Virus record (IMG/VR): IMGVR_UViG_3300035703_000115
Span: 1 to 56,995 of that record
Reading direction: 5' to 3' (one strand)
Length of the DNA stretch: 56,995 bases
DNA from: a virus
Lineage: Duplodnaviria; Caudoviricetes
A model generated the notes under the pieces. The model worked only from the letters and a program-made list of their open reading frames with translations. It did not search any database and was not told where the DNA came from. The translations under genes were made by a program, and so were the position numbers. Positions 3,356 to 30,988 of this stretch are shown here, in pieces; position 1 is the first letter of the stretch, and each line of letters opens with the position of its first letter.

Positions 3356-5587
3356 ATGGGCTTGATCTTCACGGGCGACTTTGCCAACTTCGACGCCAAC
3401 CAAAAGGCGGACTACTACAAAAGCCTGCAGGGCCTGGGCTACTCGGACGGCGAAATCCGACAAGCTGCCGAGGGCGTTGCCGGCGCGCAGACCGATGCCA
3501 ACTGGAATGCGCTCAAGGGGTTGGCGGACTCGCGCCCGGCCGGCGCCGCTTTCGCAACAGGCGTTCAAAATTTCGGAGCGCCGCAGAAGGCCCAGTTCTA
3601 CCGTGACCTGCGAACCTCGGGCCTGACAGATGGCCTGATCCGTCAGGCCGCCGAGGAATCATTCGGCGCGCAGACCGATGAGAACTGGAAGGCGCTGCAA
3701 GACATGTCGGGCTACGTCGCGCCGAAGAAGGCCGCGGCATCCCCTGCTGCATCTCCTGCGCCTGCCCCCGCCCCGGTGTTCACGGCTCCCCCAGTCGCCA
3801 CCTACCAAGCGGCGGTGGCGCAGCCGGCGCGAGACGCCACCTTCCGCGGCTACGACGCGGCCACGATTGGTGATTTGCCCAAGGCTCAGATCGAGCGCAT
3901 CGTCGTTGACGATAACCAGACCGTGCAGGGCCGCCTGCGTGGACTGCTTGCCGAGGACAGTCCGATCCTGCAGCAAGCCCGCGCACGCGCCCTGGCGTCG
4001 ATGAATGCGCGCGGCCTGATCAACAGCAGCATGGCAACAGGTGCAGCGGACTCCGCTCTGTACGACGCGGCCACGCCGATTGCCGCGGCAGATGCCGGCA
4101 CGTTTGCAACGGCAGCCCGGGAAAATGCCGACGCATTCAACACCAACTCTCGTTTCAACGTCGAAACGGAAGCGAACCGGCAGCGTTACAACGCTGACGC
4201 AACCAACCAGAGTCGCGCCTTTGGAGCCCAGGCTTTCAACACCGCCGAGCTCACAAACACCGGCCGACTGCAGGAAGTCAATCTGGCCAATGCCGGCTTC
4301 CAGAATTCCGCAGCCCAGTTCAATGCCGGCGCGCAGAACACCGCCAACCTCGCAGGCTTTGACGCCAATGTCCGAAGCAGTCTGCAGAACTCTCAGCAGC
4401 AGTTTCAGCGCAGTGAAAGCGCACTGGATCGCGCGCAGCAAACGAGCCTGCAGAATGCGGCGCAGACCTTCCAGGCCAGTCAGAGTGAGATTGATCGTGC
4501 TCAGCAAATTATGTTGGCCGACAAAAACATCACGGCGCAGCAGGCGTTGCAGCAGGCGCAACAAAAGTTCCAGTCAAGCGAGTCTGCCCTGGACCGCACG
4601 CAGCAGACCGCGCTGAACCAGGCGACCCAGGCATTCCAGGCGACTCAAGCAGAGAAGGACCGCGCCCAACAGATCATGTTGGCGGATAAAAACATCTCTG
4701 CCCAACAGGCACTGGAGCAGGCGCGGTTCACGTTCCAGGCGGAGCAGTCCGGTCTTGACCGCACGCAGGCCGCATCTCTGGCCGAGGCCGGTCGGGTGTT
4801 CCAAGCGTCGCAGGCCGAGAAGGATCGTGCGCAGCAGGTCATGCTTGCGGACAAGAACATCTCCGCTCAGCAGGCGCTTGAGCAGGGCCGGTTCATCTTC
4901 CAGGCCGAGCAGGCGGGACTGGATCGGACCCAGGCCGTCAATCTTGCAGAGGCCGGCCGCACGTTCCAGGCATCGCAGGCTGAGCGCGACCGGGCTCAGC
5001 AGATCATGCTCGCCGACAAGAACATCTCCGCGCAGGTCGCGCTTGAGCAGTCGCGCCAGACCTTCAGCAGCGTCGAGGCCGGACTGCAGCGGGACTTTGA
5101 AGCGAAGATGACCGAGCTTCGCTTCTCTCAGTCCACGACGCTCGGCTCGCAGCAGTTCGCCACCAATGTCTCTGCAAGCCTCAATAACCAGATCAGCGCG
5201 ATCCTCGCAGACGGCAACCTGACGCCGGAGTCCAAGGATGCGGCCATCAGCAACTTGGTCAAGTCGGCCAACTCCACGCTCGCCTGGGGTTCTGCGTTCT
5301 ACAAAACGCCGCTGCCGTCAGTAACAGCGCCCGGCGCCACGCCTGGGCAGACCGGCACAACGGCCACCACAGGCACAACGGGCACTTCTGGTGGCGGTCT
5401 TATCAACACCACGGTAGCCGGCCCTGGCGGTCAGGCCACGCAACTGCCGGACTACTTTTCAAGGTACGGTGATGTGGCTCGTGCCTACGAGTCGGAAAAC
5501 GCTGCCGCGCGTGGCATCACGCCGGAGCAGTACGCGCAGATGCACTACGACAAGTTCGGCCGCACTGAGGGCAGGGCAGCGCCGTGA
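3356..5587 (+). CDS. Putative internal virion/ejection protein with tandem repeats
   Basis: 743 aa, Ala/Gln-rich; RGLINSSMA motif; lies in the ejection-protein block. Confidence 0.6.
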   Translation: MGLIFTGDFANFDANQKADYYKSLQGLGYSDGEIRQAAEGVAGAQTDANWNALKGLADSRPAGAAFATGVQNFGAPQKAQFYRDLRTSGLTDGLIRQAAEESFGAQTDENWKALQDMSGYVAPKKAAASPAASPAPAPAPVFTAPPVATYQAAVAQPARDATFRGYDAATIGDLPKAQIERIVVDDNQTVQGRLRGLLAEDSPILQQARARALASMNARGLINSSMATGAADSALYDAATPIAAADAGTFATAARENADAFNTNSRFNVETEANRQRYNADATNQSRAFGAQAFNTAELTNTGRLQEVNLANAGFQNSAAQFNAGAQNTANLAGFDANVRSSLQNSQQQFQRSESALDRAQQTSLQNAAQTFQASQSEIDRAQQIMLADKNITAQQALQQAQQKFQSSESALDRTQQTALNQATQAFQATQAEKDRAQQIMLADKNISAQQALEQARFTFQAEQSGLDRTQAASLAEAGRVFQASQAEKDRAQQVMLADKNISAQQALEQGRFIFQAEQAGLDRTQAVNLAEAGRTFQASQAERDRAQQIMLADKNISAQVALEQSRQTFSSVEAGLQRDFEAKMTELRFSQSTTLGSQQFATNVSASLNNQISAILADGNLTPESKDAAISNLVKSANSTLAWGSAFYKTPLPSVTAPGATPGQTGTTATTGTTGTSGGGLINTTVAGPGGQATQLPDYFSRYGDVARAYESENAAARGITPEQYAQMHYDKFGRTEGRAAP
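4472..5060 (+). repeat. 165-bp (55-aa) degenerate tandem repeat, about 4 copies
   Basis: QASQAEKDRAQQIMLADKNISAQQALEQ units start near 4472, 4637, 4802 and 4967. Confidence 0.85.
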
Positions 5588-8289: not shown

Positions 8290-11200
8290 ATGCGCTTTGA
8301 TGTCAACGCCGCTCGCAAGGCTGGGTACACCGACGATGAGATTGCCGACTACCTTTCTGAGCAGCGCGGGTTTGACATTGGCTCGGCGCGGGAATCGGGC
8401 TATTCGTCTCGGGAGGTCTTGGACTTTCTGAGCAAGCCGGAGGTCAAAAAGCCGGCCGTCGCCAACACCCCGGCCTATGTCGAGGAGCCCATCAACTACG
8501 ACGATGCGGCAACCTCGATGGCGGGTACGCCTTCGCAATCAAACGGCGGCGGCGTCCTTCAGCGCATCGGCGCGGCGCTGCGGCCCGACCAAAATCGCAG
8601 CGTGCTTGAGGGGTACAAGCAGCCGGAGGCCGAGCGCCAAGCGGAGGTTGATCGTCGCCTGTCCTACGGTCAGGGTCCAATCAGCCAGAAGGTCGCGGCC
8701 GATGCTGACCGTGTTCGCAGTGCGCGTGGCACCAACGACCAGATCAAGTTCACCAGCCCGACCTATGAGAGCCGGGTGCGGGGGGTCGTTGACGCGATGG
8801 ACGAGCGCGGCGAGCGCTCTTTTGGCGACCTTGCCGCGCTTGGGCGTGATGGCGAGATTCAGCGGGCATTGACTCAGAGCAAGGCCGACGAGTTCCGCTC
8901 TGCCGGCGAGTGGGCCATCGACACCGCATCCAATGTGATGCAGGGCGCCGTGTCTCTGGCGCAGATGCCGGTCAATCTGATCGCGCCTGACGGCTCTCTG
9001 GCCGAGTCGCTGCGGCAGACCCAGAAGGAATTGCAGGCCGAGGAGTCTGATGTCCTCAAGGCCAGCCGTGAAGTCCTCAAGCAGCGGGTGATGAACGAGG
9101 AGGGCTTCTTCGGGCAATACGCCGCCACGGTCAAGCAACTGATCACAAACCCCACGCTCGCTATCTCTGAGGGCTTCAAGCAGTTGCCGATGTTCCTCGG
9201 GATCGTGGGCGCAGCCCGTGGTGGTGCGGCGGCGGGCGCTGCCGGCGTGGCCGCCGCAGGGCGTGTTGCTCCTACGGTTGCGCTGGCAGATGCGATTGGC
9301 GGCGGCGCTCTGACGGCGCGGGCCGCCGCTATCGGCAGCACTGTGGGCGGTGGCGCCGCAGCGGTGACGATGGCCGCGGGTGATGCGGCCGGTCAGACCT
9401 ACGAGGAACTGACCGATCCCCGGCGCACTCCGCGAGAAACCTGGGAGCAGAACCCAGACTATCAGCGCCTTGTGGCCGAGGGCAAGTCTCCGGATGAAGC
9501 GATCAATGAGTTGGCCGTTGCCAAGTCGCGCATGGCCGCGCTTGTGGCCGCGCCTCTTGGCATCTTGGGCTTCATGGGCGCAGAGGCGGCAGTCGCAGGC
9601 CGCGGTATTGTTCAGGCCGCAAGGGATGCGCTGACCTTCAAGGGTGCCGCAAAGTCTTTCGGCAAGGAAACGGTTGGTGAGCAGTTGGAGGAGGGCGGTA
9701 CACAGGCCGCATCCAACTTCGCCGTTTCTACGGTGAACCCAAACAAGTCAATCCTTGAAGGCGTGCCCGAGGCGATGGCACTGGCCGGCGTGACATCGAC
9801 GCCATTCGGCGCGATTGGTGCCTTGAGCAACTATCAGCAGGCGCGGGCTCAGTTGGACTCCGGACCTGATGTGGCGGCCCTCGTTAGCCGGGATGGTCAG
9901 ACCGCAATTGATGACCGCTTCGGCGACACCCTGCGCCCCGAGCGAGTGGCTGCCGAGCGCGAGCGCCTGGAGCGTATGCGCCGCCTGTCTGAGGCGCAGA
10001 GCGTGGATGAGGCGATTGAGTTGGCCAATGAGGTGGCCAATGCGCCGGTTGCGCCGCAGACGCCTGCTGCGCCCGCGGCGCCGGTAAACGCCGGGGATGA
10101 TCCGGTTCTGAGCAATGTGCTGACATCGCTCGGGGCACTGAGCAATCAACCAGGAGGCGTCAATGTCGGGGCATCAAATCAGCCTGCACCCACAGCTACA
10201 GGAGGCCCTGGAGTTGGGGGCGGTGACGTTCTCGGAAGCCTGGTTGCTGATGGACGAAATCCTGCTGCAGGACTGCGAGGTGGTGATGATGCCGGCGGAG
10301 TACCTAGTGTTAGTAGCCAAGGTGCAGTTGTGCTGGGCGGAGGTGCCGCCGGGGGTGGTCGTCCAGTAGTTCTCCAGAACCGCGACCGATCAACGGCGGC
10401 GTCCATCTCGCAGATGAACAGCATCGCGGCAGCACCCGACTATCTCAGGGCTGGCCCGAGCCGTGAGATGGTCACGGGTGCCCCGGTGGTTTTCGGGGAT
10501 GTGCCGGATTTTGCAGCGCTGGGGCGGCAGGAGACGGTTGTGGACGGGCGTGGCAATCGAGTTGCCGTGCAGTACGCCGTGGTGGATGCTGCCGATCTGA
10601 TCCCGTCCAACCGTGCGGATGGCACCCCGGTGTCTGAGTACGAGCAAGGCGCCGCCGGCAAACTGCGCGCGGTGGCCGGCAACGGCAGAACGGCTGGCCT
10701 GCAGGAGGCGTACAACCGCGGCACTGCGGGCGCCTATCAATCCGAGATGATGGCCGACTTGCCCAATCTCGGCGTTGACCCGGCTGCGGTGCAGTCGATG
10801 CAGCGTCCGGTCCTGGTACGGGTCATGTCGCAAGATGATGTGACACCCGACATGGGCGACCGCACGAACACGGCGGTGACGCAGAACTTGAGTCCTGTTG
10901 AGCAGGCGGCCAACGATGTGCGCCGAGTGGATGTTCGCGGGTTTGAGTTCACCGATGCGGGCGACCCGACACCGCAGACTGTTCGCTCGTTCGTGTTCTC
11001 TTTGCCTGAGTCCGAGCGCGGCAACTTGCTCAACGCTGACGGCACGCCGACGCGGCAGGCCGTTGACCGGCTCATGGGCGCCACATTCCGCGCCGCCTAT
11101 GGCAATGATGGGTTGGTGCAGTTGTACGCGCAGGCCACCGACCCGGATGCGCGGTCGGTGATCAACGCCGCGGCGATGGCGGCGGGCTCCATGTCCAGCC

Positions 11201-14200
11201 TGGTTGGGTCCGCCCCGGAGTTCGACATTCGAGGCGTGGTGTCGGATGCCATCGGGATGGCGGTCAATGCGTCCAGGCAGGGAGTTCGCCTCGCTGACTA
11301 TGCAGCCAACACCGATCTGACCACAGACGCTTATGCGGCTGACATTGCAAGGTTCCTGGGTGAGAATATCCGCTCACCCAAGAAGATGGCCGAGGGGCTG
11401 CGGGCGATGGCGAACTTTGCCGCGCAGCAGCAGCAGGCTCTGGTCAGCAACGCCACCAATGCCGGCCTGTTCGGGGATCAGCCCACGGCCAGCCGCCAGG
11501 AGATCATCAATGCCGTCTTCGGACAAGCCAACGGTCAACCCCAAGTCGCTGCTAGAAACGCCGCAGTGGCGCAGGATGGCGGTCAAGGTGCTCAACGGGC
11601 AGCAACCGACCCAGCAGGAGCAGGACGAGTTTCAGTCGATGGCGCTGCAGGAAGCCAAGCGGCGACTGGACGAAATGAGCAAGGCTCAGACCAGCAAGGA
11701 CTGACATCTCCCACGGTCGATCAGGTTCTGCAGCAGCAGGACCGTGCGGCCAATGAAGCGGAACTTGATCAGCGTGATCAGGTTCGACGCGAGAGCGAGG
11801 CGGGCGCCGATCAGTTCACGCTGCAGGCGCAGGATGGCCGGGTAGACAACACCGGCAGCCTGTTCTCAAACGACAGGGAGCAGCAGGACGAGGACTTCCT
11901 GCGGACCGTGTTCGGCGCCGAATCCGGCCAGGCCGGGCAGTCCAACTCTGGAGGCGGCACCACCAATTCCGCATCCCGCCTGCCGACCGTGGAGGGCGTG
12001 GGCTCTGTTGTGCAGATGAAGGTCGGGCAGACCTTCCAGATCCGTGACCAAGGTCAGGTTCACCAGGTTCGCGTGGTGGACTCCAAGTCATCGGGCGTTT
12101 CGTCCAGGGCTCTGGACATCATCGCCAAGGTGTTCGGCAAGCGTGTGGTGTTCGTGGACCCCGGCACCTTGGATGTCGATGGATTCGTGCGGCCTGACGA
12201 CAACCGCAACATCTACATCAGCGTGCGCTCCAGGATCAACCCGCTGGCCGTGCTTGGCCACGAGTTGACGCACCTGCTCAAGCGCGACAACCCGCAAGCC
12301 TACGCCGCCCTGGAGGCGGTGGTGATGCGCGAACTGCGCGAGGGTGCGGGCAAGAGCTTCTCTGCCTACTACGGACCCGGCGCCAATACCGAGGAATTGG
12401 TTTCCGACCTGGTGGGCAACCGCCTGATGGACAAGGACTTTCTGGTCAAGTTGTTCGCCGAGATCCAGGCTCAGAACCCGCAGGGCGCGCAGGGCATCAT
12501 CGCCAAGTTGGCCGCGATCATCAACCGGGTGGTTTCTCGGTTCATGGAGTTGTCCAAGCAGGCCGGCTTTGAGACGGACGCCTTGGTCAAGCGAGTGGCC
12601 CCGATCCAGGATGCGGTGCGGCAGGCTCTGAAGGAGTACGCGCTGCAGCAGGGTCTGCGGCCGGCGCAGATGGAGGTTGCGCTGGCGCGTGCGGGAGCGG
12701 GCTTGAGCATTGAGGGTGCGGCGCCCGTGCGGCGCAGTCCGGTTCGACCGGCCAGCGCGGATCGTGCAGACCTCAACCGTTCGCTCGGCGCGCAGCGCGT
12801 CTCTCCGCGACTGCCAACCGCAGTCAAGGCCACGGAAAATCCGATGGGCAACGACCGACTGCAGCCGGACCTAGATTCAGCCAAGCGGGACGCTGTTGTC
12901 TTCGCGCACAACATCAACCTGATGGCGCAGTACCCCAACTTCGTCAATGTTGGCGGCTCTGTGGACCAAATGGCCGAGGCCATGATCACGCAGATGAAGG
13001 ACAACCTGGTGTGGCTGCACAACCAGTGGCGTCCTGAACTGCGCGAGCGGTCCCGACTCTGGTATGTGGGTGGGAATCGAATCTCACACCGTATGGCTTC
13101 GCGGTTTAGGACCGAGCCCTGGCGTGTGGCTGCCGTGATTGCGGCGACCAGCCCTCAGAAGGACTGGTTCCAGAACGTCTCTTTGGCCGAGCGCATTTTG
13201 GAGGCGGTGGTCAACAACTCGCAGATGGCCTGGACGGCGCAGATGACCGAGACGGTCAACTCCCGCGACTGGGGCGGCAAGGAGTCGCGCGATCTGGGGT
13301 TCACGCCGCGCAATGAAATCTCTCGCCTGCAGGGCAAGACCTTGCGTGATCTGTACGACCCTCAGAATCCGCAGTCTCTTTTGGATATGGCGGTATGGGT
13401 TCGCGCTTGGGATGAAACGTACAACCCCCGCATGGCCAGGGTGATCTCGCCTGAAGGCAAGTTCATTGATGAGTTCGACTCGACCAAGGACGGTCGTCCA
13501 ATCGGCCTGCGTTGGCAGAGTTTTGCGACCATTGCCAAGACGCTGGACATCCTGACTGCGCCTGATCGGGCGACAGTGTCTTCCATGATCGGCTCGAACC
13601 ATAAGGTTCGCTCGTTCTACAACAACATCATCGCGCCGTTTGATGATGAGGACGTGACCATCGACACCCATGCCGTGGCCGCCGCGCTGATGCGACCACT
13701 GGGGTCGTCAGCCACCGAGGTGGCTCACAACTTTGGCACCAACGAAAAGGGGATGCCGGGGCCGAAGAACAGTGCCATCACGGGACTTTTCGGCACCTAC
13801 CCGATCTACGCTGAAGCGTATCGCCGGGCTGCCCGCGAGGTTGGGGTGCTTCCTCGCGAGATGCAGTCCATCACTTGGGAGGCGGTGCGCGGCCTGTTCC
13901 GTCCAGAGCAGAAGAATGAGAGAATCAAGGGCGAGGCAGACCGCATTTGGCGCGAAGTCTCTGAGGGAGAACTGGATGTCAACGAAGCGCGGCAGCAAAT
14001 CTCTGGCCTGGTTGGTGGCATCCAAGACCCCGCCTGGGTCCGATCCCCTGCTGGAAGTAATGAAGCAGCGCGGGATTCCTCTTACGCAGGAGGAGTACCT
14101 GAAGATGGCGTACCCGGAAGGGGTGCCCAACCCGGTGCCGCCCGAGGTGATGGCCGAGATGCCAGCGCAACTCCGGCAAGCCTGAGTCGCGGGCGACGAG

Positions 14201-17200
14201 TCGCGCCCAACCCTGACTCCGCAAACTTCAAGCGTTGGAGCGGTAACGCCCCGCTGATCACCTCTGCAGCAGCGGTTGACCATGTCTTCAAGACGGGTCA
14301 GAAGGTGGTGCTTGAGGGCTTCCACGGTACTGGCCGGGGTGATCGTGTTGGCACGGTGTTCCAGCGCAAGCGCGCCACCTCCGGCCCGATGGCGTTCTTC
14401 ACCAGTTCGCCGGTGCTTGCGAGTTCATACGCGCAGGGGAAGCCAGACACCAGCCGCGCACTGGAGGACAACCCGTTTGAGAGTTGGTTCAAGTTCAAAG
14501 GGAAGGGAATGCGAACGGCGGTCAACCTCGACCGCGCGTGGTATTTCCTTGATCAAGAGAGCAAGGCCAAGATCGCCAAGCGGATGCCTGACATTCGCAC
14601 GGACGATGACGGCAACATCGTCTACGAAGAGGGCGGCGGCGACCTCGGCAACTACGACTGGGAACTGAAGCAAACCAAGTCGGCCTACCTGCGTGAGGGT
14701 AACCCGCTGAAGGCGGCCGTTGAATCTTGGTTGAGCAGCGGCTCCATCTACGGCGACGAGGGCAGTTTCCGCCAGGTGCTGCGCTTGGCCGGCTTCCCGA
14801 TGGATGCGCTAGATTACGACAACCCGCAGGAGACGTACCCGTTCGTCTACAAGGTCTATGTCTCCATGCTCAACCCGCTGGTGACCAGCGACATTCCGAA
14901 GGAAGTGGACGATGCCTTGCGCGCGGCTGCCGCAAAGGACCGCAGCAAGGCCAAGTCACAGTTCGGCGTGGACTCATGGGACAAGAACACCCGCACGCTC
15001 AAGGAGTGGGTGGGCGAGTACCTGAACCCATCCAATGGGGATAACCGCTACGTTTGGACGAGCATCCCTGATAAGGTGACCGAGGTTTTCAAGAGCCTGG
15101 GTTATGACGGGATCATCGACTACTCGGGGAAGAACGGTTCCACCGAAGTCGCGCCGGTCTACATCCCGTTTGAAGAGGGTCAGGTCAAGAGCGCCCTGAG
15201 CAACAGCGGCGAGTTTGACCGCAGCAAGAAGGACATTCAGGCCAGCAGATCGCGTGAGCGCCTACTGTCAATGCCTGCGGTGCCGGTGAGTCCGCTACCC
15301 GATGGTATGGCTCTTGGTGATCTTCGAGTCTTGGCTAGTGAGCGGTACAAGGCCGCTGCCAAACTTGGCCCCGTCAGGATGAAGGATGACCGCGCCGTGC
15401 TGTTGACATCGGTGGGGATGAAGAAGTCGCGCAGCCACAGCGCCGACAAGCGGGTGCTGGACTTGATGGGCTCAATTCGCGAGGTGCTTGGCGCGGCCGA
15501 GCCCGTGGCTTCGATTCCGCATCAGAAGGAAAACCCAGGCGACTCAATCCGCGCGTGGCACTACTACGGCGCGAAGGTGGATATCGATGGCGAGGAGGCG
15601 TTTGCCAAACTCGTTGTGCGCGAGTCCGTCAACGGCGAGATTTACTACGACACCGACCTGTCTGGCGTGGAAGATATCAGCGGTCGTGCTGGTGACGCTG
15701 CCCGATCCAAAACCGGGGCGGCAGCCGTTTCCGCTGACAAAAGAACTCTAGCCGATCTTTTGGGCGCGGGCAATCTTGGGAGTGAGGTTGAGTTGAGCCG
15801 CGGCCGCTCCGAAATCGGTTTCTACTCCGCCCTGTCTGAGGGCATTGACGGCATCAAGGTCAGTGCTGCGCCTGCAGCCGGATGGCGCGATGCCATCAAG
15901 GGCCTGGTGAACAAGGGTGCGGCCAAGGCCGATGAGGTGGAGTGGTCGGGGGTCAATGACTTCCTGAGCCTGCAGGCCGGCAAGGTGACCAAGCAGCAGG
16001 TGCTGGACTACCTGGGCGCCAATGGGGTGCGGGTAGAGGAGGTGGTGCTGGGCGGCAACACCGCATTGACGCCAAGCGAGCAGACCGAGATGGACGAACT
16101 GCTTGACTTGCGCCGGCGCTACGAAGAGGGAGAGGCCGGAGTCTACGAGGCGGCCGACGCCGACAGGTTGGAAGAACTGATGCGCAAGCGCATGCAGGAC
16201 GCCGAAGACGTGGCGCTGCCAAAGTACGGCCAGTACACCCTCCCCGGCGGCGAGAACTACCGCGAGGTGCTGCTGACGCTGCCAGATAGGCGCGAGCTGC
16301 CAGAGGGCTACAAGGTCAAGAATGACCCCGACTATGGGTGGATGGTTGAGAGCCCCGAGGGCGGCATGGTGTGGCAGGGCAGAACGCGAGAGGAGGCTGT
16401 CGCCAATGCCAGAAGCAGCCCGACTGTGCTGGGCCAGAAGCAGCCGGACAAGTCTTACCGTTCCTCACACTGGGACCAGCCCAACGTCATCGCCCACATC
16501 CGCGTCAACGACCGCACCGATGCCGATGGCAAGCGCGTGCTGTTCGTGGAGGAGATTCAATCTGACTGGGGCCAGGAGGGGAAGAAGAAGGGTTTTGCCG
16601 AGAAGTCCCCGAGGCCGGTCCGCGTGTTTGACCGGCGAACTGGGGCGGAGGTTGCACGGTTCAATACCGGGCGCGAGGCTGAGGAATTCATCGCGTCGGA
16701 AGATCCGCGCATGGACAGGCTTGAGTACGAGGAGGACCAGGGTCGCAACTCCGGCATCCCATCCGCACCCTACGTCACCAAGACCGAAGGCTGGCTGAAC
16801 CTCTCCCTCAAGCGCGTGATGATCATGGCCGCAGAGGGAGGCTATGACAAGGTTGCGTTCGTCAATGGCGAGCAGTCTGCTGATCGGTATGACCTTTCAA
16901 AGCAGATCAGCAAGGTTCGCTACGAGGACAGGAGCATCCAAGGCTCTGGCAAGCCCACGTTGGATGGTTCGCCTGAGAGCGGGGAGTTCTATGCCTATGA
17001 CCTTGAAGGGAATCTACAGATTAACAGGCGCCTCAATGACCCAGTCAAGGAGTTGCCTGACCTAATCGGTAAACAACTGGCTGAACGTCTTTTGAATGCT
17101 GAGCCGACAGAAGCTCGCGGCTATGGCGGTGGCTTCCGTCGCCGAGAGGTTTCTGGCGTTGACCTCAAAGTCGGCGGCGAAGGCATGAAGACCTTCTACG

Positions 17201-20200
17201 ACACCATCGTGCCCACGGCGCTGAAGAAGCTGCTGCCCAAGGTGGGTGGTGGGCAGATGAGCAATGTTGATGTTGTCTTGCAAGAAGCATACGAGCGCGA
17301 TCCCGAAGGCTTCCCGGCCAAGATTGCCGCTCAACCCGGCTTTGATGTCACCCCCGAGATGGTGCAGAAGGTATCCGATGGGGTGCCGCTGTTCAGCCGC
17401 GGCCGCAACTCTCAGATCGACACGCCTGAGTTCAAGCGGTGGTTTGGGGATTGGGAGGCTGTTATGCACCGCGTCTTCCTAGACGGCCCCCCGGTCGCCT
17501 CAGTAGCTGGCGACACATTCAGCTCTGATGGAGTGCCGCTAACGGAGAAGGTGCCCAAGTGGTACGCGGAGCGCGGCTTCTCTACGGTGGATGTGGCCGG
17601 TATCGGGCCAGTCTCGCTAGACGAGAAGGCCGTAAAAAACAGCCTTTCGCACGGTATCGGGAGGGATAAGGCCGCTGCGTTTGCGGTGGTCCCCGATGTT
17701 CTTCTAAAGGGCCGCATCATCCACCGTGAGCGGCATGATGGTGGCCGCGACACCGACATGGTGTATCACATAGCCGCGCCGGTCAGGATTGGTGGCCGCG
17801 ACTTTATCGCTGACGTATTGATTCGCGAGGACAGCAACATCCGCCGCATGTACGTCCACGAAGTCGTGCTCAAAGAAAAACTCCAGCAGTCCGCCTTCAA
17901 GACCAGTGCAGATGCAGTCGAAACTGGGGTGCGTGCTGGAGCGGGTGCTGGAGCGATGCGTAGTGTGCTTCAGAGAGTTTTCACCGTCAACCCCGCAACC
18001 GTCTCCAAAGTCGTCGATGCTGATGGCAAGCCGATGGAGGTGTACAACGGCTCGCCGGACGGGATTGAGGCGTTTGAAGAAGGCCGAGACGCCTACTTCA
18101 CCAGCAGCCGCCGATTGGCCGAGGAGTACACCGACCGCCGAGGTATGTGGTTGTCCAAGGGCGCGAACCCGACTGTCACCTCTGCTTACCTGTCAATTCA
18201 GAACCCGTTGGTGATTGACGCGCTTGGCAAGCGCAACGACAACATCCCGGTGCCGTGGCAGGAGTGGAGCCCGAAGGTATTCGGCAGGCTTCCAGATGGT
18301 GCAGTGAGCGTTGAGGCTGCGGCCAAGCGTGCCCGTGAGATGGGTTACGACGGTCTGATTGTTCGCAACGTGGTGGACAGCGCCACGACCGATGGCAAGA
18401 CCAAGGGCGACGTGTTCGTGGCCTTCAGCCCCGAGCAGATCAGGGAATCGACCGGCGACAGCAGCGACATCACGAAGTCCTCTGGCCGCGCCACCAGTGA
18501 CCTGGACCTGATCGCCAAGCGCGACGAGATGGGCCGATTGAAGTTCGGCCTGGGCAGCAAGGCTTACAGCCTCGTGGCCGAGGTGGCCAACAACGTGCTG
18601 GATCGGGTTCGCATGAAGCCCATCTCCGAAGACCTCGCTCGGGCCATGCTCAAGATGAAGGTCGCCATCGAGCAGGCGCAGGAGCGCACGGTGGATGTGG
18701 CCAAGTCCATGAGCGAACTGGACCCCGCCGAGCGGCAGATGATCTCGGATGTGATTGAGCAGGAACTGACCGCAGGCGTGGTGCCCCCAACTCGTGTGCT
18801 GCAGATCGCGGCCACCCTGCAGGGCATCATGTCCGAGCAGTCCAAGGAACTGATCGACCTGGGCATGCTGCGCCAGGAAGATGCTGACCGATGGGATGGA
18901 CGCTACATCCCGCGCTTCTACGAGCAGACTCTTGGCAAGGAAGCCTCGGCCTGGATGAAGGCGGTCAAGCAGTTGTTCACTCGCCCGCGCGCGATGATGG
19001 GCATCAAGGGCAACAACCTGAAGTCTCGCGGTCTGTGGGAGACGATCCCTGCGGACGAGTTGGCATCGTGGACGGCCAATGGTTGGGAGGCTCGCGACCC
19101 CGCGTTCGATCCGGCCACCTCAACCGAGGTCCGCATCTGGCGCGACTACACCCGCCCCGAGCGGGATGGCATGGGCGAGATTCGGGACGCCATGTTCCGC
19201 TTCGTCATGGGCTACCAGAAGGCCCAGCGCGACATCGCCTTGGGCAAGATGTACCGGCACATCAACCAAACGATGGCTAGCAGCGTCGAGAAGGATGGAT
19301 TCGTTCGGGTGCCGGACTCCAGCATCGATGGCGTGGACGTGCCGTCCTACGGCGAGCTGGCCGGCAAGTGGGTTCCGCGCGAGGTGCTGGATCACCTGAG
19401 CGCATTCGACTCCACGCAGCGCAACGCCCTGACCCGCTTCTACCAAAAGGCTCTTTCCTACTGGAAGGAGGGCAAGGTGGTGCTCAACCCGGTGAGCCAT
19501 GCCAACAACATCCTGTCCAACCTGACGATGGCCCACTTCGCCGGCGTGTCGTACTGGGACGGCGGCAAGTACATGGCCGCCCTGCGTGACATGGTCAAGG
19601 GCTCGCCCATGCTGGACGAGGCCAAGGACGCGGGCCTGTTCGTGGGATCGTTCAACCAGGCCGAGATCGCCAAGGCGCTGCCCGAGGAGTTGAAACTCCT
19701 GGCCGGCAAGTCCGAGAGCAAGGCCGGGCAGGCGGTGGACTTCGCCTTCACCGCGATGACGTTCTTCTTGCGAAAGCCGATGAACATGGCCTACGAGGTG
19801 GAGGACCAGTACTTCCGGTACCTGCTGTACCGCGACGCACGACAGCGCGGCATGGAGCCGGAGGACGCGGTGCGCCACTCGCAGCGGCACATCTTCACCT
19901 ACGACGACCTGCCGCAGGGCGCGCGCGTGGTGCGCGACACGGCGCTGCCATTCTTCGCCTACACCTACAAGGTGATCCCGGTCCTGGCCAAGACGGCGCT
20001 GGAGTACCCGCATCGGTACGCGATGCCAGCGGCCATCCTGTACACCCTCAACGCCCTTGGATTCGCGATGGCCGCCGGCGATGAGGACGATGACTGGATG
20101 GAGATCATCCGCAAGTACGCCACCGACGCCGACTTCCGCAAGAAGGTCAGCGACCTGGAGGGCCAAGAGCGCGAGAACCTGCCGCCGTGGATGCAGGGCG

Positions 20201-20859
20201 CAAGCGCCTCTCTTGGAACGCCCAAGGCGATCCGCCTGGGCGAGGATGACAAGACCGGTCTGCCGGTGTACCTGGACGTGAGCAAGATCTTCCCCGGCGG
20301 CGATCTGTTGGATGTCACATCGAACGCCGGCGGCCTGCCGTGGCTGCAGCCGCTCACGCCTTCAAGTCCTGTGCTCAACGCGGCCGCGGCGCTGTTCTTC
20401 AACCGCGATCCGTTCTACGGCAAGGACCTGGTGGACAAGAACGACACCCCCGCAGAGGCCGCAGAGAAGCGCGCCGAATGGGCGTGGAAGCAGTTCTCGC
20501 CGGCCATCACGGTCTACAACTACCACTGGGACCGCGGCATGAACGTCTTGGCCAACGCCACCGGAACGGACATCCTGGGCTACACCGGGCGCGGCAAGGA
20601 CGGCATCCCGGTAGATGCGATGTACGCGGCCATGCAGACCTTCGGCATCAAGGCTCGGCCCATTGATCTGGAGAAGTCGGCCGACATCAACGCCAACAAG
20701 GAGAAGTCCATCATCCGCTCCATTGAGGCAGAAATTTCGCAACTCAAGCGCCTGGAGGCCAAGGGCGCAATGACCTCGGAGAAGGCTCAAAAGCAGATCG
20801 ACCTTGAGAACGAGAAGATCCAGCGCATGCGCGACAAGCAAACTGAGTCAGTTGATTGA
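8290..20859 (+). CDS. Giant polyvalent protein (probably virion-injected): ddrB-like ParB domain, zincin peptidase-like domain, TIDTHA domain, two ART-PolyVal-like domains, two BECR/LPD3-like RNase domains, EEIQSD domain, helical C-terminal region
   Basis: 4189 aa uninterrupted. Motifs: LQNRDR/YAVVDAADL/VAGNGR (~10372-11480); HELTH (~12259); VTIDTHA (~13654); FHGT..FFTS..GYDGII (~14320-15120); WHYYG..KLVVRE..YYD (~15555-15650); EEIQSDW (~16549); FKRWFG..YNGS..YFT..GYDGLI (~17430-18360) interrupted by YHIAAPV..ADVLIRED..MYVHEV. Confidence 0.85.
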   Translation: MRFDVNAARKAGYTDDEIADYLSEQRGFDIGSARESGYSSREVLDFLSKPEVKKPAVANTPAYVEEPINYDDAATSMAGTPSQSNGGGVLQRIGAALRPDQNRSVLEGYKQPEAERQAEVDRRLSYGQGPISQKVAADADRVRSARGTNDQIKFTSPTYESRVRGVVDAMDERGERSFGDLAALGRDGEIQRALTQSKADEFRSAGEWAIDTASNVMQGAVSLAQMPVNLIAPDGSLAESLRQTQKELQAEESDVLKASREVLKQRVMNEEGFFGQYAATVKQLITNPTLAISEGFKQLPMFLGIVGAARGGAAAGAAGVAAAGRVAPTVALADAIGGGALTARAAAIGSTVGGGAAAVTMAAGDAAGQTYEELTDPRRTPRETWEQNPDYQRLVAEGKSPDEAINELAVAKSRMAALVAAPLGILGFMGAEAAVAGRGIVQAARDALTFKGAAKSFGKETVGEQLEEGGTQAASNFAVSTVNPNKSILEGVPEAMALAGVTSTPFGAIGALSNYQQARAQLDSGPDVAALVSRDGQTAIDDRFGDTLRPERVAAERERLERMRRLSEAQSVDEAIELANEVANAPVAPQTPAAPAAPVNAGDDPVLSNVLTSLGALSNQPGGVNVGASNQPAPTATGGPGVGGGDVLGSLVADGRNPAAGLRGGDDAGGVPSVSSQGAVVLGGGAAGGGRPVVLQNRDRSTAASISQMNSIAAAPDYLRAGPSREMVTGAPVVFGDVPDFAALGRQETVVDGRGNRVAVQYAVVDAADLIPSNRADGTPVSEYEQGAAGKLRAVAGNGRTAGLQEAYNRGTAGAYQSEMMADLPNLGVDPAAVQSMQRPVLVRVMSQDDVTPDMGDRTNTAVTQNLSPVEQAANDVRRVDVRGFEFTDAGDPTPQTVRSFVFSLPESERGNLLNADGTPTRQAVDRLMGATFRAAYGNDGLVQLYAQATDPDARSVINAAAMAAGSMSSLVGSAPEFDIRGVVSDAIGMAVNASRQGVRLADYAANTDLTTDAYAADIARFLGENIRSPKKMAEGLRAMANFAAQQQQALVSNATNAGLFGDQPTASRQEIINAVFGQANGQPQVAARNAAVAQDGGQGAQRAATDPAGAGRVSVDGAAGSQAATGRNEQGSDQQGLTSPTVDQVLQQQDRAANEAELDQRDQVRRESEAGADQFTLQAQDGRVDNTGSLFSNDREQQDEDFLRTVFGAESGQAGQSNSGGGTTNSASRLPTVEGVGSVVQMKVGQTFQIRDQGQVHQVRVVDSKSSGVSSRALDIIAKVFGKRVVFVDPGTLDVDGFVRPDDNRNIYISVRSRINPLAVLGHELTHLLKRDNPQAYAALEAVVMRELREGAGKSFSAYYGPGANTEELVSDLVGNRLMDKDFLVKLFAEIQAQNPQGAQGIIAKLAAIINRVVSRFMELSKQAGFETDALVKRVAPIQDAVRQALKEYALQQGLRPAQMEVALARAGAGLSIEGAAPVRRSPVRPASADRADLNRSLGAQRVSPRLPTAVKATENPMGNDRLQPDLDSAKRDAVVFAHNINLMAQYPNFVNVGGSVDQMAEAMITQMKDNLVWLHNQWRPELRERSRLWYVGGNRISHRMASRFRTEPWRVAAVIAATSPQKDWFQNVSLAERILEAVVNNSQMAWTAQMTETVNSRDWGGKESRDLGFTPRNEISRLQGKTLRDLYDPQNPQSLLDMAVWVRAWDETYNPRMARVISPEGKFIDEFDSTKDGRPIGLRWQSFATIAKTLDILTAPDRATVSSMIGSNHKVRSFYNNIIAPFDDEDVTIDTHAVAAALMRPLGSSATEVAHNFGTNEKGMPGPKNSAITGLFGTYPIYAEAYRRAAREVGVLPREMQSITWEAVRGLFRPEQKNERIKGEADRIWREVSEGELDVNEARQQISGLVGGIQDPAWVRSPAGSNEAARDSSYAGGVPEDGVPGRGAQPGAARGDGRDASATPASLSRGRRVAPNPDSANFKRWSGNAPLITSAAAVDHVFKTGQKVVLEGFHGTGRGDRVGTVFQRKRATSGPMAFFTSSPVLASSYAQGKPDTSRALEDNPFESWFKFKGKGMRTAVNLDRAWYFLDQESKAKIAKRMPDIRTDDDGNIVYEEGGGDLGNYDWELKQTKSAYLREGNPLKAAVESWLSSGSIYGDEGSFRQVLRLAGFPMDALDYDNPQETYPFVYKVYVSMLNPLVTSDIPKEVDDALRAAAAKDRSKAKSQFGVDSWDKNTRTLKEWVGEYLNPSNGDNRYVWTSIPDKVTEVFKSLGYDGIIDYSGKNGSTEVAPVYIPFEEGQVKSALSNSGEFDRSKKDIQASRSRERLLSMPAVPVSPLPDGMALGDLRVLASERYKAAAKLGPVRMKDDRAVLLTSVGMKKSRSHSADKRVLDLMGSIREVLGAAEPVASIPHQKENPGDSIRAWHYYGAKVDIDGEEAFAKLVVRESVNGEIYYDTDLSGVEDISGRAGDAARSKTGAAAVSADKRTLADLLGAGNLGSEVELSRGRSEIGFYSALSEGIDGIKVSAAPAAGWRDAIKGLVNKGAAKADEVEWSGVNDFLSLQAGKVTKQQVLDYLGANGVRVEEVVLGGNTALTPSEQTEMDELLDLRRRYEEGEAGVYEAADADRLEELMRKRMQDAEDVALPKYGQYTLPGGENYREVLLTLPDRRELPEGYKVKNDPDYGWMVESPEGGMVWQGRTREEAVANARSSPTVLGQKQPDKSYRSSHWDQPNVIAHIRVNDRTDADGKRVLFVEEIQSDWGQEGKKKGFAEKSPRPVRVFDRRTGAEVARFNTGREAEEFIASEDPRMDRLEYEEDQGRNSGIPSAPYVTKTEGWLNLSLKRVMIMAAEGGYDKVAFVNGEQSADRYDLSKQISKVRYEDRSIQGSGKPTLDGSPESGEFYAYDLEGNLQINRRLNDPVKELPDLIGKQLAERLLNAEPTEARGYGGGFRRREVSGVDLKVGGEGMKTFYDTIVPTALKKLLPKVGGGQMSNVDVVLQEAYERDPEGFPAKIAAQPGFDVTPEMVQKVSDGVPLFSRGRNSQIDTPEFKRWFGDWEAVMHRVFLDGPPVASVAGDTFSSDGVPLTEKVPKWYAERGFSTVDVAGIGPVSLDEKAVKNSLSHGIGRDKAAAFAVVPDVLLKGRIIHRERHDGGRDTDMVYHIAAPVRIGGRDFIADVLIREDSNIRRMYVHEVVLKEKLQQSAFKTSADAVETGVRAGAGAGAMRSVLQRVFTVNPATVSKVVDADGKPMEVYNGSPDGIEAFEEGRDAYFTSSRRLAEEYTDRRGMWLSKGANPTVTSAYLSIQNPLVIDALGKRNDNIPVPWQEWSPKVFGRLPDGAVSVEAAAKRAREMGYDGLIVRNVVDSATTDGKTKGDVFVAFSPEQIRESTGDSSDITKSSGRATSDLDLIAKRDEMGRLKFGLGSKAYSLVAEVANNVLDRVRMKPISEDLARAMLKMKVAIEQAQERTVDVAKSMSELDPAERQMISDVIEQELTAGVVPPTRVLQIAATLQGIMSEQSKELIDLGMLRQEDADRWDGRYIPRFYEQTLGKEASAWMKAVKQLFTRPRAMMGIKGNNLKSRGLWETIPADELASWTANGWEARDPAFDPATSTEVRIWRDYTRPERDGMGEIRDAMFRFVMGYQKAQRDIALGKMYRHINQTMASSVEKDGFVRVPDSSIDGVDVPSYGELAGKWVPREVLDHLSAFDSTQRNALTRFYQKALSYWKEGKVVLNPVSHANNILSNLTMAHFAGVSYWDGGKYMAALRDMVKGSPMLDEAKDAGLFVGSFNQAEIAKALPEELKLLAGKSESKAGQAVDFAFTAMTFFLRKPMNMAYEVEDQYFRYLLYRDARQRGMEPEDAVRHSQRHIFTYDDLPQGARVVRDTALPFFAYTYKVIPVLAKTALEYPHRYAMPAAILYTLNALGFAMAAGDEDDDWMEIIRKYATDADFRKKVSDLEGQERENLPPWMQGASASLGTPKAIRLGEDDKTGLPVYLDVSKIFPGGDLLDVTSNAGGLPWLQPLTPSSPVLNAAAALFFNRDPFYGKDLVDKNDTPAEAAEKRAEWAWKQFSPAITVYNYHWDRGMNVLANATGTDILGYTGRGKDGIPVDAMYAAMQTFGIKARPIDLEKSADINANKEKSIIRSIEAEISQLKRLEAKGAMTSEKAQKQIDLENEKIQRMRDKQTESVD
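10163..10369 (+). CDS. Nested small ORF 1 (68 aa) in the +1 frame of the giant gene
   Basis: AGGAGG 5 nt before the ATG; nearly all codons end in G/C in this frame, while the host frame becomes Gly-rich filler with A/T-ending codons. Confidence 0.7.
   Translation: MSGHQISLHPQLQEALELGAVTFSEAWLLMDEILLQDCEVVMMPAEYLVLVAKVQLCWAEVPPGVVVQ
11510..11704 (+). CDS. Nested small ORF 2 (64 aa) in the +1 frame of the giant gene
   Basis: AGGAG 7 nt before the ATG; helical-looking product MPSSDKP...EAKRRLDEMSKAQTSKD; begins just after the ParB-like domain. Confidence 0.6.
   Translation: MPSSDKPTVNPKSLLETPQWRRMAVKVLNGQQPTQQEQDEFQSMALQEAKRRLDEMSKAQTSKD
13976..14185 (+). CDS. Nested small ORF 3 (69 aa) in the +1 frame of the giant gene
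   Basis: GAGGGAG 6 nt before the ATG; product includes DPLLEVMKQRGIPLTQEEYLKMAYPEG; its stop coincides with the SRGR module junction. Confidence 0.7.
   Translation: MSTKRGSKSLAWLVASKTPPGSDPLLEVMKQRGIPLTQEEYLKMAYPEGVPNPVPPEVMAEMPAQLRQA
15668..15738 (-). ncRNA. Candidate antisense structured sRNA 1, downstream of RNase-like domain 1
   Basis: Closing stem GUCAGCGG/CCGCUGAU, inner GCUGCC/GGCAGC, and CCCGG-UUUUGGA-UCGGG; G-U pairs form only on the minus strand; the 5' end lies 7 nt from a predicted -10. Confidence 0.55.
15745..15773 (-). promoter_or_regulatory. Antisense sigma70-like promoter TTGCCC-N17-TAGAGT
   Basis: Reverse complements of gggcaa (15768-15773) and actcta (15745-15750), 17-bp spacer. 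Confidence 0.55.
17872..17954 (-). ncRNA. Candidate antisense structured sRNA 2, downstream of RNase-like domain 2
   Basis: Closing stem GCUCCAGCA/UGCUGGAGU, inner CCGC/GCGG and CCAG/CUGG, CAGU-UUCG-ACUG tetraloop, 3' UUUUUCUUU tail. Confidence 0.6.
17962..17990 (-). promoter_or_regulatory. Antisense sigma70-like promoter TTGACG-N17-CACACT
   Basis: Reverse complements of cgtcaa (17985-17990) and agtgtg (17962-17967), 17-bp spacer. Confidence 0.5.
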
Positions 20860-21723: not shown

Positions 21724-22761
21724 TCAAAGTGCCTTGCGCCTGGACGCTGCCGAGCGGTCGTAAACCTTGGCCGTGGTGGTCGGGCTGGCGTGGATTTCGG
21801 GCAGTGTTCCAAGCTGTTCCTTGTGGGCCGTGACGTAGTGCGCCCGCAGATCGTGGAAGGTGAATTTGCGCCGGATGACCTTGGCGTCCAGCGCGGCCTT
21901 GATGAACTTCTGCCACTGCGCGGCGAACCCGAAATAGGTGTACGCATTGCCGTGCTGATTGCGGAACACCGTGCCCTCGCGCGGGTTGGTTGCAAGCGCC
22001 CGCATCCTGCCCAGCAGTTCGCGCATGGCGGGGCTGATCTCAATGCGCTCAACACGCTCATCGCGTCCACGCTGTTTGCTGCGCTTCAGACGCACTTCGG
22101 TGCTGGTCACCTGAGTCCATGTCATGTCGAGGAATTCGGCCTGACGGGAGCCTGCCAACGCAGCGAATTCAGCCGCCCCGCAGATGATCAGACTCTGCCC
22201 GCCACGGGCTTGAGCAAATGCCGCCAGGGCCTTGAGGTCTGCTGTCTCGGGAGAGACAGTGCGCGGCCTCTCTTTGTTGCGCTTGACTTGCCGCTCACGG
22301 CAGGGATTGACCAGCGCCTCCCCCCTCTCAATGGCTAGACCGATCAGGATGCTCAACAGCGAAATCTCGCGGTTGGCACGCACTGGGGCGTCAGACCTCT
22401 CCACGCGCAAATATTGCGCGATCATGGGCGCGGTGATGTCGGCGGCCTGCATGGCTCCGAAAACCCGCAGCACCGCGACCGAGTAGGCCGTGTAGTCCTG
22501 CTGTGTGCGGGGCTTGAGATCACGCCACAGTGGTGTGAGTTGGTAGGTGTCCCACAGACCCGCTATCGTGCCGATGGCGGGGCCGCTGCGGGTGAGGTCA
22601 AGCACCTTGCGGATCGCCGCCTCGCGGTCTGTGCCGAGGTTGATTGGCTTGCCGCGCAGGGGGTGGTAGCGGTAGGTGACGGTCTTTCCATCCTTCCAAG
22701 GCCGCGCCTCCATCAGCGGCAACAAGCCTTGAGCACTGGCGCGGTCTTTGGGTCGGATCAT
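21724..22761 (-). CDS. int: Tyrosine integrase
   Basis: GSRQAEF (R), FHDLRAH (HxxR), H...VY (catalytic Tyr); next to attP. The start could also be 22776. Confidence 0.92.
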   Translation of the reverse strand: MIRPKDRASAQGLLPLMEARPWKDGKTVTYRYHPLRGKPINLGTDREAAIRKVLDLTRSGPAIGTIAGLWDTYQLTPLWRDLKPRTQQDYTAYSVAVLRVFGAMQAADITAPMIAQYLRVERSDAPVRANREISLLSILIGLAIERGEALVNPCRERQVKRNKERPRTVSPETADLKALAAFAQARGGQSLIICGAAEFAALAGSRQAEFLDMTWTQVTSTEVRLKRSKQRGRDERVERIEISPAMRELLGRMRALATNPREGTVFRNQHGNAYTYFGFAAQWQKFIKAALDAKVIRRKFTFHDLRAHYVTAHKEQLGTLPEIHASPTTTAKVYDRSAASRRKAL

Positions 22762-22970
22762 GCTGACACTCTCCATTTCGGCCCATTGACGGGCGTTGCC
22801 TGGGCCATATTACGCCTGTCCCAATCTGCCCTTCGCACCAGAGGCTTGCCGTTGGGCTTCACATCGACCGGCAGGCCAAGTCCGCGCAGGAAGCGAACCT
22901 GGGCGTGGCCCTGTACCAGCGGCTCGCAGATCGCGTCAATCTCTTGCTGAGTGAGGATAGGCAGGCTCAT
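22758..22970 (-). CDS. Putative excisionase, DUF4224-like
   Basis: LTQQEIDAIC...AQVRFLRGLGLP...GKPLVRR; overlaps the int start. Confidence 0.7.
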   Translation of the reverse strand: MSLPILTQQEIDAICEPLVQGHAQVRFLRGLGLPVDVKPNGKPLVRRADWDRRNMAQATPVNGPKWRVSA

Positions 22971-29299: not shown

Positions 29300-29644
29300 C
29301 TACGGCTTGGCGCGGGGCTTGTCGCTCTCGTCTCGCCAGTCGATGTCGCCAAAGTCCATGACGCTGTCTTCGGCCGGGCAGTCCATGCTCACGCCCTTCG
29401 GGCTTTCCCAGACGTAGCAGATTCGGTAGTCCACATGGATGGTGCCCTTCATGGGGATGCGGACCACGCGCAATGTGGCGTTGGGCATTTCATAGACACG
29501 CTCAATCGGCCCCTGCTTGAACATCTCGGCGACCTTGGCCCGCTCCTTTTCCCGGCGCTCCTTGGCCCGCCTTTCTTTGTCTGAATCGCCCGTGCAGCCG
29601 GCGATTGCGACTGACGCGACCAGGGCGAAAAGTGTTGATCTCAT
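29300..29644 (-). CDS. Lipoprotein co-transcribed with cI (possible superinfection exclusion)
   Basis: Signal peptide with lipobox IAG-C; ATGA overlap with the cI stop. Confidence 0.6.
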   Translation of the reverse strand: MRSTLFALVASVAIAGCTGDSDKERRAKERREKERAKVAEMFKQGPIERVYEMPNATLRVVRIPMKGTIHVDYRICYVWESPKGVSMDCPAEDSVMDFGDIDWRDESDKPRAKP

Positions 29645-30342
29645 AGCCCTCCCGAGCCCGACTTGTCCCTCACCCGGCCGATGATGCTGATGTGCTCTTG
29701 CACGGACTCGGGGTCGATTTCCTCGTCCTGAGGGCGGTGCGCAGGATTGTCACTGTGCAAAATGATTCCGCCATCAAGTCGCTTGTAGACGCGCTTGATT
29801 CTCAGTTCATCGCCGTAGCGCAGCGCGTACACCTTGCCATCCAAGATCGTGACCTCGGCTAGGTTCACCAGCACGGTGTCGCCCGAGTGAAGAAGGGGTT
29901 CCATGCTGTCGCCGCGGACTTGGAACCGCCTGGCTGACTCGGGCTTGATGCCCTGCTTCTGAAACCACTCCCGGCGGTAGGTCGCGAGGGTTGAGTCTTG
30001 GATCTCCTCGACGATGGGGATTCGCCCCGGCCCGGCGCTGAAGGTGACCGTGTGCTCGGGGATCTGGACGTAGTCTTCGCCCAAGTCCTCGTCGTCATCG
30101 TGCGCCCGAACCGCGACCGCCTGTATGACGCTGGATGGCGCGTCCATGAGGAAGTACGTCTCGGGCAGTCGCAACCTTTCCGCAAGTCGTGTTGCCACCA
30201 ACTCCCCGAACGGCTCGTTTTCGTCCAGCAACTGTGTGATTCGCCCCTTGCTGTATCCCGTTCGCCTCATCAATTCTTGGCGGTCCGACTTGAGCTTTGA
30301 CTCAAAGTAGGCGACGAATCGATCCCTGCGCTCTTTGTCCAT
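29641..30342 (-). CDS. cI: CI-like repressor with S24 peptidase domain
   Basis: N-terminal HTH (TGYSKGRITQLL), SAGPG cleavage site, VRGDSMEP and IKR; the real start is the internal ATG at 30342, divergent from cro. Confidence 0.9.
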   Translation of the reverse strand: MDKERRDRFVAYFESKLKSDRQELMRRTGYSKGRITQLLDENEPFGELVATRLAERLRLPETYFLMDAPSSVIQAVAVRAHDDDEDLGEDYVQIPEHTVTFSAGPGRIPIVEEIQDSTLATYRREWFQKQGIKPESARRFQVRGDSMEPLLHSGDTVLVNLAEVTILDGKVYALRYGDELRIKRVYKRLDGGIILHSDNPAHRPQDEEIDPESVQEHISIIGRVRDKSGSGGL

Positions 30343-30378
30343 CCTGGCAATGCTATGACGCGGGCGTTCAGCAATTTC

Positions 30379-30408
30379 TTGACAGCATCGTTTAGACTGA
30401 TCTAAACT
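30379..30408 (+). promoter_or_regulatory. PR promoter (TTGACA-N18-TAAACT) with operator GTTTAGA-CTGA-TCTAAAC
   Basis: Perfect -35; palindrome at 30390-30407; cro ATG lies 7 nt past the -10. Confidence 0.8.
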
Positions 30409-30414
30409 TTGCGC

Positions 30415-30630: not shown

Positions 30631-30730
30631 CACCTCACCCGCGCAACTCACGCGCCATTTCCTCCCACTCCCAGGCCGCGTTGTCCATACAGCGCCGGAT
30701 GACCCAAGACAGTTTCTGAGTCGCCCAAAC

Positions 30731-30985: not shown

Positions 30986-30988
30986 TGG

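Follow-up and report, generated by a model that had tools for sequence, protein, structure and literature searches.

We found what is very probably a small gene overprinted in the +1 frame of a giant phage gene, immediately after the sequence encoding the ddrB-ParB module of the giant protein, and its product is probably a partner of that module. The DNA analysed is the virus record IMGVR_UViG_3300035703_000115, a stretch of 56,995 bp with a CheckV completeness of 97%, which we refer to as the window. The containing gene, here called the host gene, encodes a 4189-aa protein, and the occurrence of ddrB-ParB, DUF7178, LPD3 and ART-PolyVal domains in this one open reading frame (ORF) makes the product a "polyvalent protein" as Iyer et al. 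2017 (PMC5512222) use the term. The anatomy, coding signature and conservation of the nested ORF at 11510-11704 were observed directly, relatives show purifying selection acting in the +1 frame, and we regard this ORF as very probably a real overprinted gene. The assignment of its product as a ParB-module partner depends on structure prediction and is put forward with less confidence, and the explanation as a whole, an overprinted gene whose product would be a cis-encoded partner of the ParB module, is held at that same level, as reasonably likely.

The nested ORF has start signals of its own. A Shine-Dalgarno-like (SD) AGGAG is followed by the spacer ATCATCA (11503-11509), an ATG at 11510-11512 and, after 64 codons, a TGA at 11702-11704, in exact agreement with the sequence and translation given by a first-pass annotation of this DNA. 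The frame is +1 relative to the host ORF, as (11510-8290) mod 3 = 1. PF18763 (ddrB-ParB) of Pfam matched the host protein at aa 695-846 with 65.7 bits against a cut-off of 27.6, and the host frame over the nested ORF was observed to be a G/A/Q/D-rich linker directly after this match, as that annotation had described it (a low-complexity linker after a ParB-like domain). The linker of the window is similar to the linkers of homologues. RNA structure around the nested start was not above that of shuffled sequences (z=+0.89).

Codon-position composition is inverted at this site. The GC content at host codon positions 1, 2 and 3 (GC1, GC2 and GC3) was 0.65/0.46/0.76 across the gene and about 0.82/0.60/0.40 over 11500-11700, where the +1 frame instead reads 0.60/0.40/0.82, close to the gene-wide values, so that the +1 frame shows the normal coding pattern. 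Chance expectations were obtained from 5000 synonymous resamplings of the host codons using the gene's own codon usage. Host GC3 over 11498-11704 was 0.429, compared to 0.739 +/- 0.052 in the resamplings (z=-6; 0/5000 as low). The host frame here uses CAA, GCA, GGA, GGT and CGA, whereas the phage elsewhere favours G/C-ending codons, and the preferred codons were observed in the nested frame at the same stretch. Coding on the minus strand was considered and rejected, since a GC1 of 0.6 and a GC2 of 0.4 fit the +1 frame and not the antisense frame with the same third position.

The arrangement recurs in other loci, a check the first-pass annotation had proposed for ddrB-ParB domains of other phages. 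A word-indexed search returned 107 giant homologues at E<=0.001, with the query itself also listed, and the ParB module was about 50-63% identical among the best homologue matches. Through the homologue alignment (A1) we obtained 19 viral and 22 bacterial-genome loci; after dropping exact duplicates (L026, L027, L031) and truncated loci (L043, L046), 37 loci were examined, which include the window and its 95%-identical relative L006. In 27 of the 37 loci we observed a +1 ORF whose start lies between -5 and +43 nt relative to the end of the ParB match (in the window, the ATG lies 5 nt before that end). The 26 distinct ORFs have 46-82 codons and start with ATG (23) or GTG (3), and 18 of the 26 loci carry GGAG, GAGG or AGGA at -17 to -4 of the start, compared to 9.4% of positions in the upstream 940 nt. 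Over the nested region the host frame contained 0 stops in these 26 loci and the +2 frame 78. Host GC3 fell by a median of 0.28 where the ORF is present (26 loci) and of 0.07 where it is missing (10 loci; Mann-Whitney p=9e-4). One IMG/VR provirus (L009, about 4137-4400) showed a GC3 drop of 0.30 after ParB and a +1 frame open for 309 codons, with no family motif.

Selection on the nested frame was measured in four independent close pairs of loci (L017/L019, L032/L033, L021/L022, L042/L045), with 900 nt of ParB coding sequence as the control; host codon position 1 is here nested codon position 3. Host positions 1/2/3 carried 140/82/497 mismatches in ParB, and the corresponding counts across the nested region were 60/32/30 (chi2=88.6, p=6e-20, where pairs and loci are phylogenetically related and pooled p-values consequently optimistic), substitutions thus moving from host position 3 (69% in ParB) to nested position 3 (49%). 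Silent changes made up 43 of the 97 changed codons of the nested frame in the four pairs, as against 13 of 95 for the host frame. L042/L045, the pair with the lowest divergence (7-8%), had 16 nucleotide changes, 12 of them at nested position 3, which produced 3 nested and 12 host amino-acid changes. The substitution pattern lies between pure nested-frame and pure host-frame selection, and fits what would be expected of a nested gene under purifying selection within a weakly constrained host linker.

The nested peptides form a recognizable family. An alignment of the 26 peptides (A2) has the core K.(L/I)(W/L/F).(S/T)P.G..LL...L.G followed by an acidic, Q-rich helix, and the mean BLOSUM62 score per site was 0.76 for the nested frame, 0.40 for the host frame and 0.44 for the +2 frame. 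Profiles built with one clade left out recognized the +1 peptides in 14 of 15 clades at 10-54 bits, in each case above the host-frame score. The family profile found two sequences outside its build, L049 (E=1e-5) and Bacillus phage vB_BspP_Dartukuta (E=1.6e-11), which adds to the co-occurrence with ParB described above. A tblastn search of 2.3 Gb of phage DNA with a Burkholderia-type peptide also returned one record, Dartukuta, at the same site and in the same frame (E=2e-4, 47.5% over 40 aa). The nested ORF of Dartukuta lies at MW749009.1 45867-46037, of which 45867-46034 are the 168 sense bases. Host GC3 in Dartukuta dips at the nested site from 0.46 to 0.28, and its GenBank record annotates at this site only a giant "putative methyltransferase".

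Within the limits of our searches the family is regarded as undescribed. The window peptide matched 0 families in Pfam-A and PHROGs, and the 26 members gave only scattered single matches in these databases (Pfam E>=0.007, PHROGs E>=0.018). Neither tblastn of the window peptide nor blastn of window positions 10300-12400 gave a match in phages. No embedded out-of-frame gene was found described in the literature on polyvalent (DarB/DdrB-type) proteins, where the supplements of PMC5512222 or PMC6139136 may list further architectures; the main text of Iyer et al. uses "overlapping" 0 times and has a single "reading frame" passage, on neighbouring small ORFs (PMC5512222).

Structure prediction points to binding between the small protein and the module upstream of it. 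With the 26-row alignment AlphaFold2 gave the small protein two helices (residues 18-28 and 35-61; mean predicted local distance difference test score, pLDDT, 75), in line with the amphipathic helices proposed earlier, and it modelled the ParB module at pLDDT 88 with C-terminal helices at 287-302, 307-312, 320-331 and 336-362. The module (alignment A3) and the small protein (A2) were then predicted as a complex, as the first-pass annotation had suggested for the domain at about 10372-11480 (the segment used was 10372-11497). The interaction prediction score from aligned errors (ipSAE) was 0.72/0.71/0.70 in three runs and 0.00-0.01 in three controls; it is a model confidence from self-made, row-matched alignments, and the calibration of the tool, in which 58 of 80 solved complexes and 2 of 110 mismatched pairs attain the mark passed here, is only rough with user alignments such as these. 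The runs had at least 89% of contacts in common and a partner pLDDT of at least 73. Predicted contacts join small-protein residues 13-53, the conserved core, to module residues 282-289, 320-328 and 341-367, outside the stretch matched by the ParB/Srx profile (chain residues 1-152). The earlier proposal had been an inhibitor of the ParB-like domain, encoded by a gene nested behind it. Its nested gene is very likely genuine and binding is predicted; inhibition would be one possible effect among several, as the predicted contact is on C-terminal helices off the ParB/Srx stretch, where binding could stabilise, mask or regulate rather than inhibit, and the pairing is not obligatory.

In the mechanism we propose, ribosomes would presumably initiate independently at the nested SD and ATG of the giant-gene mRNA and read the disordered-linker region in the +1 frame to make the small protein. 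The host linker accepts almost any polar sequence, so selection there would act mainly on the nested frame. Only a few codons separate the end of the ParB-module coding sequence from the nested gene downstream, and the partner would therefore be made beside the nascent domain, where its two helices, by prediction, contact the final helices of the module and complete a helical bundle. The likeliest role would be that of a partner which masks the ParB module, holds it inactive or stabilises it in the producing cell, possibly before the giant protein is packaged.

Several observations weigh against this interpretation, and we consider them together with the alternatives they favour. The alternative that survives best accepts the nested gene as real and has its product act on something other than the ParB module, as a regulator, as a packaging or assembly factor for the giant protein, or as an effector in the infected cell, with its site reflecting a linker tolerant of overprinting. 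We consider this unlikely, and the most serious of the alternatives. It is favoured by the ten loci of 37 in which no ORF follows the ParB module and a different linker follows the same ParB end, so that the module is not obligatorily paired with the nested gene. No ORF copy was found elsewhere in five ORF-less records (54-79% complete; a positive control was run), and a comparison by eye of the ParB C-terminal helices, which are visibly alike in loci with and without the ORF, found no separating feature. The predicted fold, a two-helix hairpin, is also generic and matched no structure or family: Foldseek searches of the Protein Data Bank (PDB) with the small protein and with the ParB module gave nothing at E<=0.001, and an ESM Atlas search with the small protein gave no usable match. 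Against these points, the complex prediction was far above its controls (0.71 vs 0.01) with the contacts on the conserved core, and in all DNA searched the ORF was seen only after ParB modules, whichever domains come next; when the family profile was run against six-frame ORFs of 56 loci (390 kb), only post-ParB +1 sites were returned at E<=1.

A second alternative is that there is no gene: a linker of low complexity and poor in hydrophobic residues would leave the frame open incidentally, and the SD and ATG would be accidental host codons (Q-E as CAG GAG, N-A as AAT GCC), or, in a variant, that the ORF is the decaying relic of a small gene swallowed by fusion. Lacking hydrophobic residues, the host linker also lacks T at codon position 2 and hence +1 stops, and an open +1 frame is by itself expected by chance: it stayed open over the 64 codons in 71% of the resamplings, and the giant gene contains 19 stop-free +1 runs of at least 64 codons. 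No RNA runs containing the window stretch were found. The ORF is almost absent from called gene sets; among 5.8 billion proteins a profile search found 12 small unnamed ones, mostly on contigs of <1 kb that cut the giant ORF. The sole phmmer match of the 64-aa peptide among 1.84 billion representatives was P0003, an Ig-repeat adhesin aligned through a repeated ETTQFRR-like motif, which we judged spurious. The window peptide is, by its profile scores, a weak and divergent member of the family: with its own clade left out it scored 10.1 bits, an E of 0.048 at Z=1000 or about 5e-5 per comparison, while the host-frame peptide scored -2.1 bits, and it is 9-32% identical to the other members of A2. 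The ORFs of three Rubrivivax metagenome-assembled genomes (L042, L044 and L045) score just 1-2 bits with the rest of the family and may represent independent overprinting at the same place. The pooled p-values, as noted, are optimistic. The lineage of the window is itself uninformative, with 0 differences from its 95%-identical relative over 11305-11902 (598 nt), and a second metagenome relative (run X2) covers only the first 16 codons of the nested ORF. The selection evidence consequently had to be transferred from relatives to this weakly similar member, a transfer made because position, frame, start signals and composition are shared. We rejected the 598-nt tract as evidence for dual coding, as it overshoots the ORF by 205 nt on the upstream side and by 198 nt on the downstream side, where it borders an indel at 11912-11959; recombination or a sweep would explain it better.

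The absence of a gene is nonetheless very unlikely, in our view, when set against the unusual codon choice of the host frame (z=-6), the displacement of substitutions towards third positions of the nested frame, the excess of nested-silent changes, the recognition of +1 peptides and not host-frame peptides by cross-clade profiles, and the conservation between Burkholderiales prophages and a Bacillus phage. Selection visible in a pair only 7-8% diverged (L042/L045) also argues against a dead relic.

The weakest alternative is that programmed +1 ribosomal frameshifting makes the +1 peptide the C-terminal tail of a shorter ParB product, which would fold onto the helices before it. The window formally permits such a shift, its +1 frame being open for 63 codons ahead of the nested ATG (from 11321), and packing on helices encoded immediately upstream is what would be predicted for an intramolecular tail; however, a +1 stop lies within 10 codons ahead of the start in 18 of 26 loci (in L032 it directly adjoins the ATG), an ATG or GTG is kept in 26 of 26, and the SD motif is enriched (18/26 vs 9.4%), and these conserved starts, SD motifs and upstream stops leave such a tail highly improbable. 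A compensated double frameshift, in which the +1 peptide would be the ancestral in-frame sequence, was rejected, as no homologous giant protein has the peptide in frame and the host linker is like those of homologues.

The arrangement of an overprinted gene with a predicted ParB-module partner as its product resembles several known systems. Rz1 of phage lambda is likewise a small phage gene wholly inside a larger one (Rz), in the +1 frame and with its own start, whose product binds that of its container; the host in the window is a 4189-aa polyvalent protein and not an i-spanin, the nested gene is not a lysis gene, and binding here is predicted. The 64-aa peptide has no cysteine and thus no lipobox, unlike an embedded o-spanin of the Rz1 type. 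In Bacillus subtilis, comS lies in a distinct overlapping frame within the giant multi-domain gene srfAB and is co-transcribed with it (PMC12915044, which also describes the use of host-silent stop mutations in the nested frame). ComS acts in an unrelated pathway, competence, and not on its container protein, whereas here the gene is a phage gene in an inter-domain linker, and the likeness is one of gene architecture alone. The prototype ddrB-ParB gene, that of phage P1, also has an annotated nested ORF, iddB (NC_005856.1), but this is on the opposite strand (L004 4207-4605, minus in the locus) and annotated "unknown protein function"; no +1 ORF of the family was found after the ParB domain of P1 ddrB. 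Immunity and antitoxin genes of polymorphic toxin systems, to which polyvalent proteins have been likened for their cassette-like variability (Iyer et al., PMC5512222), are similar in that a small partner gene stands immediately 3' of the domain bound, by prediction in our case, and differ in that the partner described here overlaps a continuing ORF instead of following a stop codon.

Genes embedded out of frame have precedents both in phages (Rz1 in Rz) and inside giant bacterial genes (comS in srfAB); what is new is the family, in an unexpected, polyvalent host gene. Conservation of the family extends across Burkholderiales prophages and a cultured Bacillus phage, and it is absent from Pfam, PHROGs and the annotation of Dartukuta, which indicates that gene callers blind to overlaps miss conserved phage genes. 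As a predicted dedicated partner, the family would also offer a handle on the injected ddrB-ParB module. The site further illustrates how a disordered linker may yield its sequence to a second frame, detectable from codon-position GC in a single sequence. A broader generalization, that giant polyvalent proteins carry a hidden gene layer with overprinted +1 small genes in each inter-domain linker, each product docking on the domain upstream in a toxin-immunity-like or assembly-factor pairing compressed into a single ORF, we consider doubtful. It would imply three such genes in the window, at 10163-10369, 11510-11704 and about 13930-14185, all with inverted codon-position GC.

Table 1. Coordinates of the nested gene, its host gene and other features (window positions unless noted)
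Feature	Position	Strand	Remarks
Nested gene, 64 codons + TGA	11510-11704	+	+1 frame; conserved core about residues 13-45 (LLETPQW..VKVLNGQ..); predicted two-helix protein
Shine-Dalgarno-like AGGAG	11498-11502	+	read directly; 7 nt 5' of nested start
Host gene, 4189-aa polyvalent protein	8290-20859	+	frame open throughout nested gene
ddrB-ParB module of host protein, aa 695-1069	10372-11497	+	PF18763 match plus conserved block to aa ~1069; directly 5' of nested gene
Predicted contact part of ParB module, chain residues 282-367	11215-11472	+	converted from residue numbers; prediction only
Candidate nested ORF, 68 codons	10163-10369	+	+1 frame, directly before ParB module; AGGAGG 5 nt before ATG
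Candidate nested ORF, chiefly 13930-14185	13733-14185	+	+1 frame, after DUF7178; host GC3 0.43-0.53
Integrase	21724-22776	-	
CI-like repressor	29641-31131	-	
Portal/adaptor	46741-48996		
Post-ParB +1 ORF of L042	4208-4411		locus coordinates
Post-ParB +1 ORF of L044	4211-4423		locus coordinates
Post-ParB +1 ORF of L045	4208-4411		locus coordinates

Judged by its gene content, the window belongs to a temperate phage (Table 1). Downstream of the nested gene, a host block LTSPT..QQDR....LDQR.Q..RES...F.L...DGR.D.TG..F (window about 11695-11880) is common to many homologues, and the nested TGA sits within the host motif G-L-T (..GGA CTG ACA..) that opens this block. Further along the linker region the 95%-identical relative (L003 5541-6092) carries about 550 nt in place of the 47 nt of the window (11912-11959), and a contig of run X1 joins 11912 to 11959, which points to a recombination or indel hotspot. 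Run X1, the best DNA run for this sequence, contained two coexisting strains over window positions 10900-11121, with depths of 99.6 and 53.9. At least 15 of the 16 differences between these strains within 222 nt fall at host third positions, and one unitig over 11092-11902 was common to both. A promoter scan returned one weak sigma-70-like site at 11339-11367 (9/12 matches), which was given no weight.

The two other candidate nested ORFs were confirmed to lie, like the nested gene, in the +1 frame, as the first-pass annotation had stated for all three, and they share this frame because linkers without T at codon position 2 yield no +1 stops. Over the candidate preceding the ParB module, host GC3 falls to 0.28-0.37, and the window differs from its 95%-identical relative at 4 sites within 10090-10389 (host positions 1/2/3 = 3/1/0). 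A +1 ORF of L034 matched this candidate weakly (E=0.006, 32% over 47 aa), and by eye the pre-ParB +1 peptides of L034 and L036 share the pattern L..AL..G.(I/V)S..EA..L. The candidate following DUF7178, the C-terminal part of which resembles an ordinary protein (..MKQRGIPLTQEEYLKMAYPEGVP..), lies outside the loci fetched.

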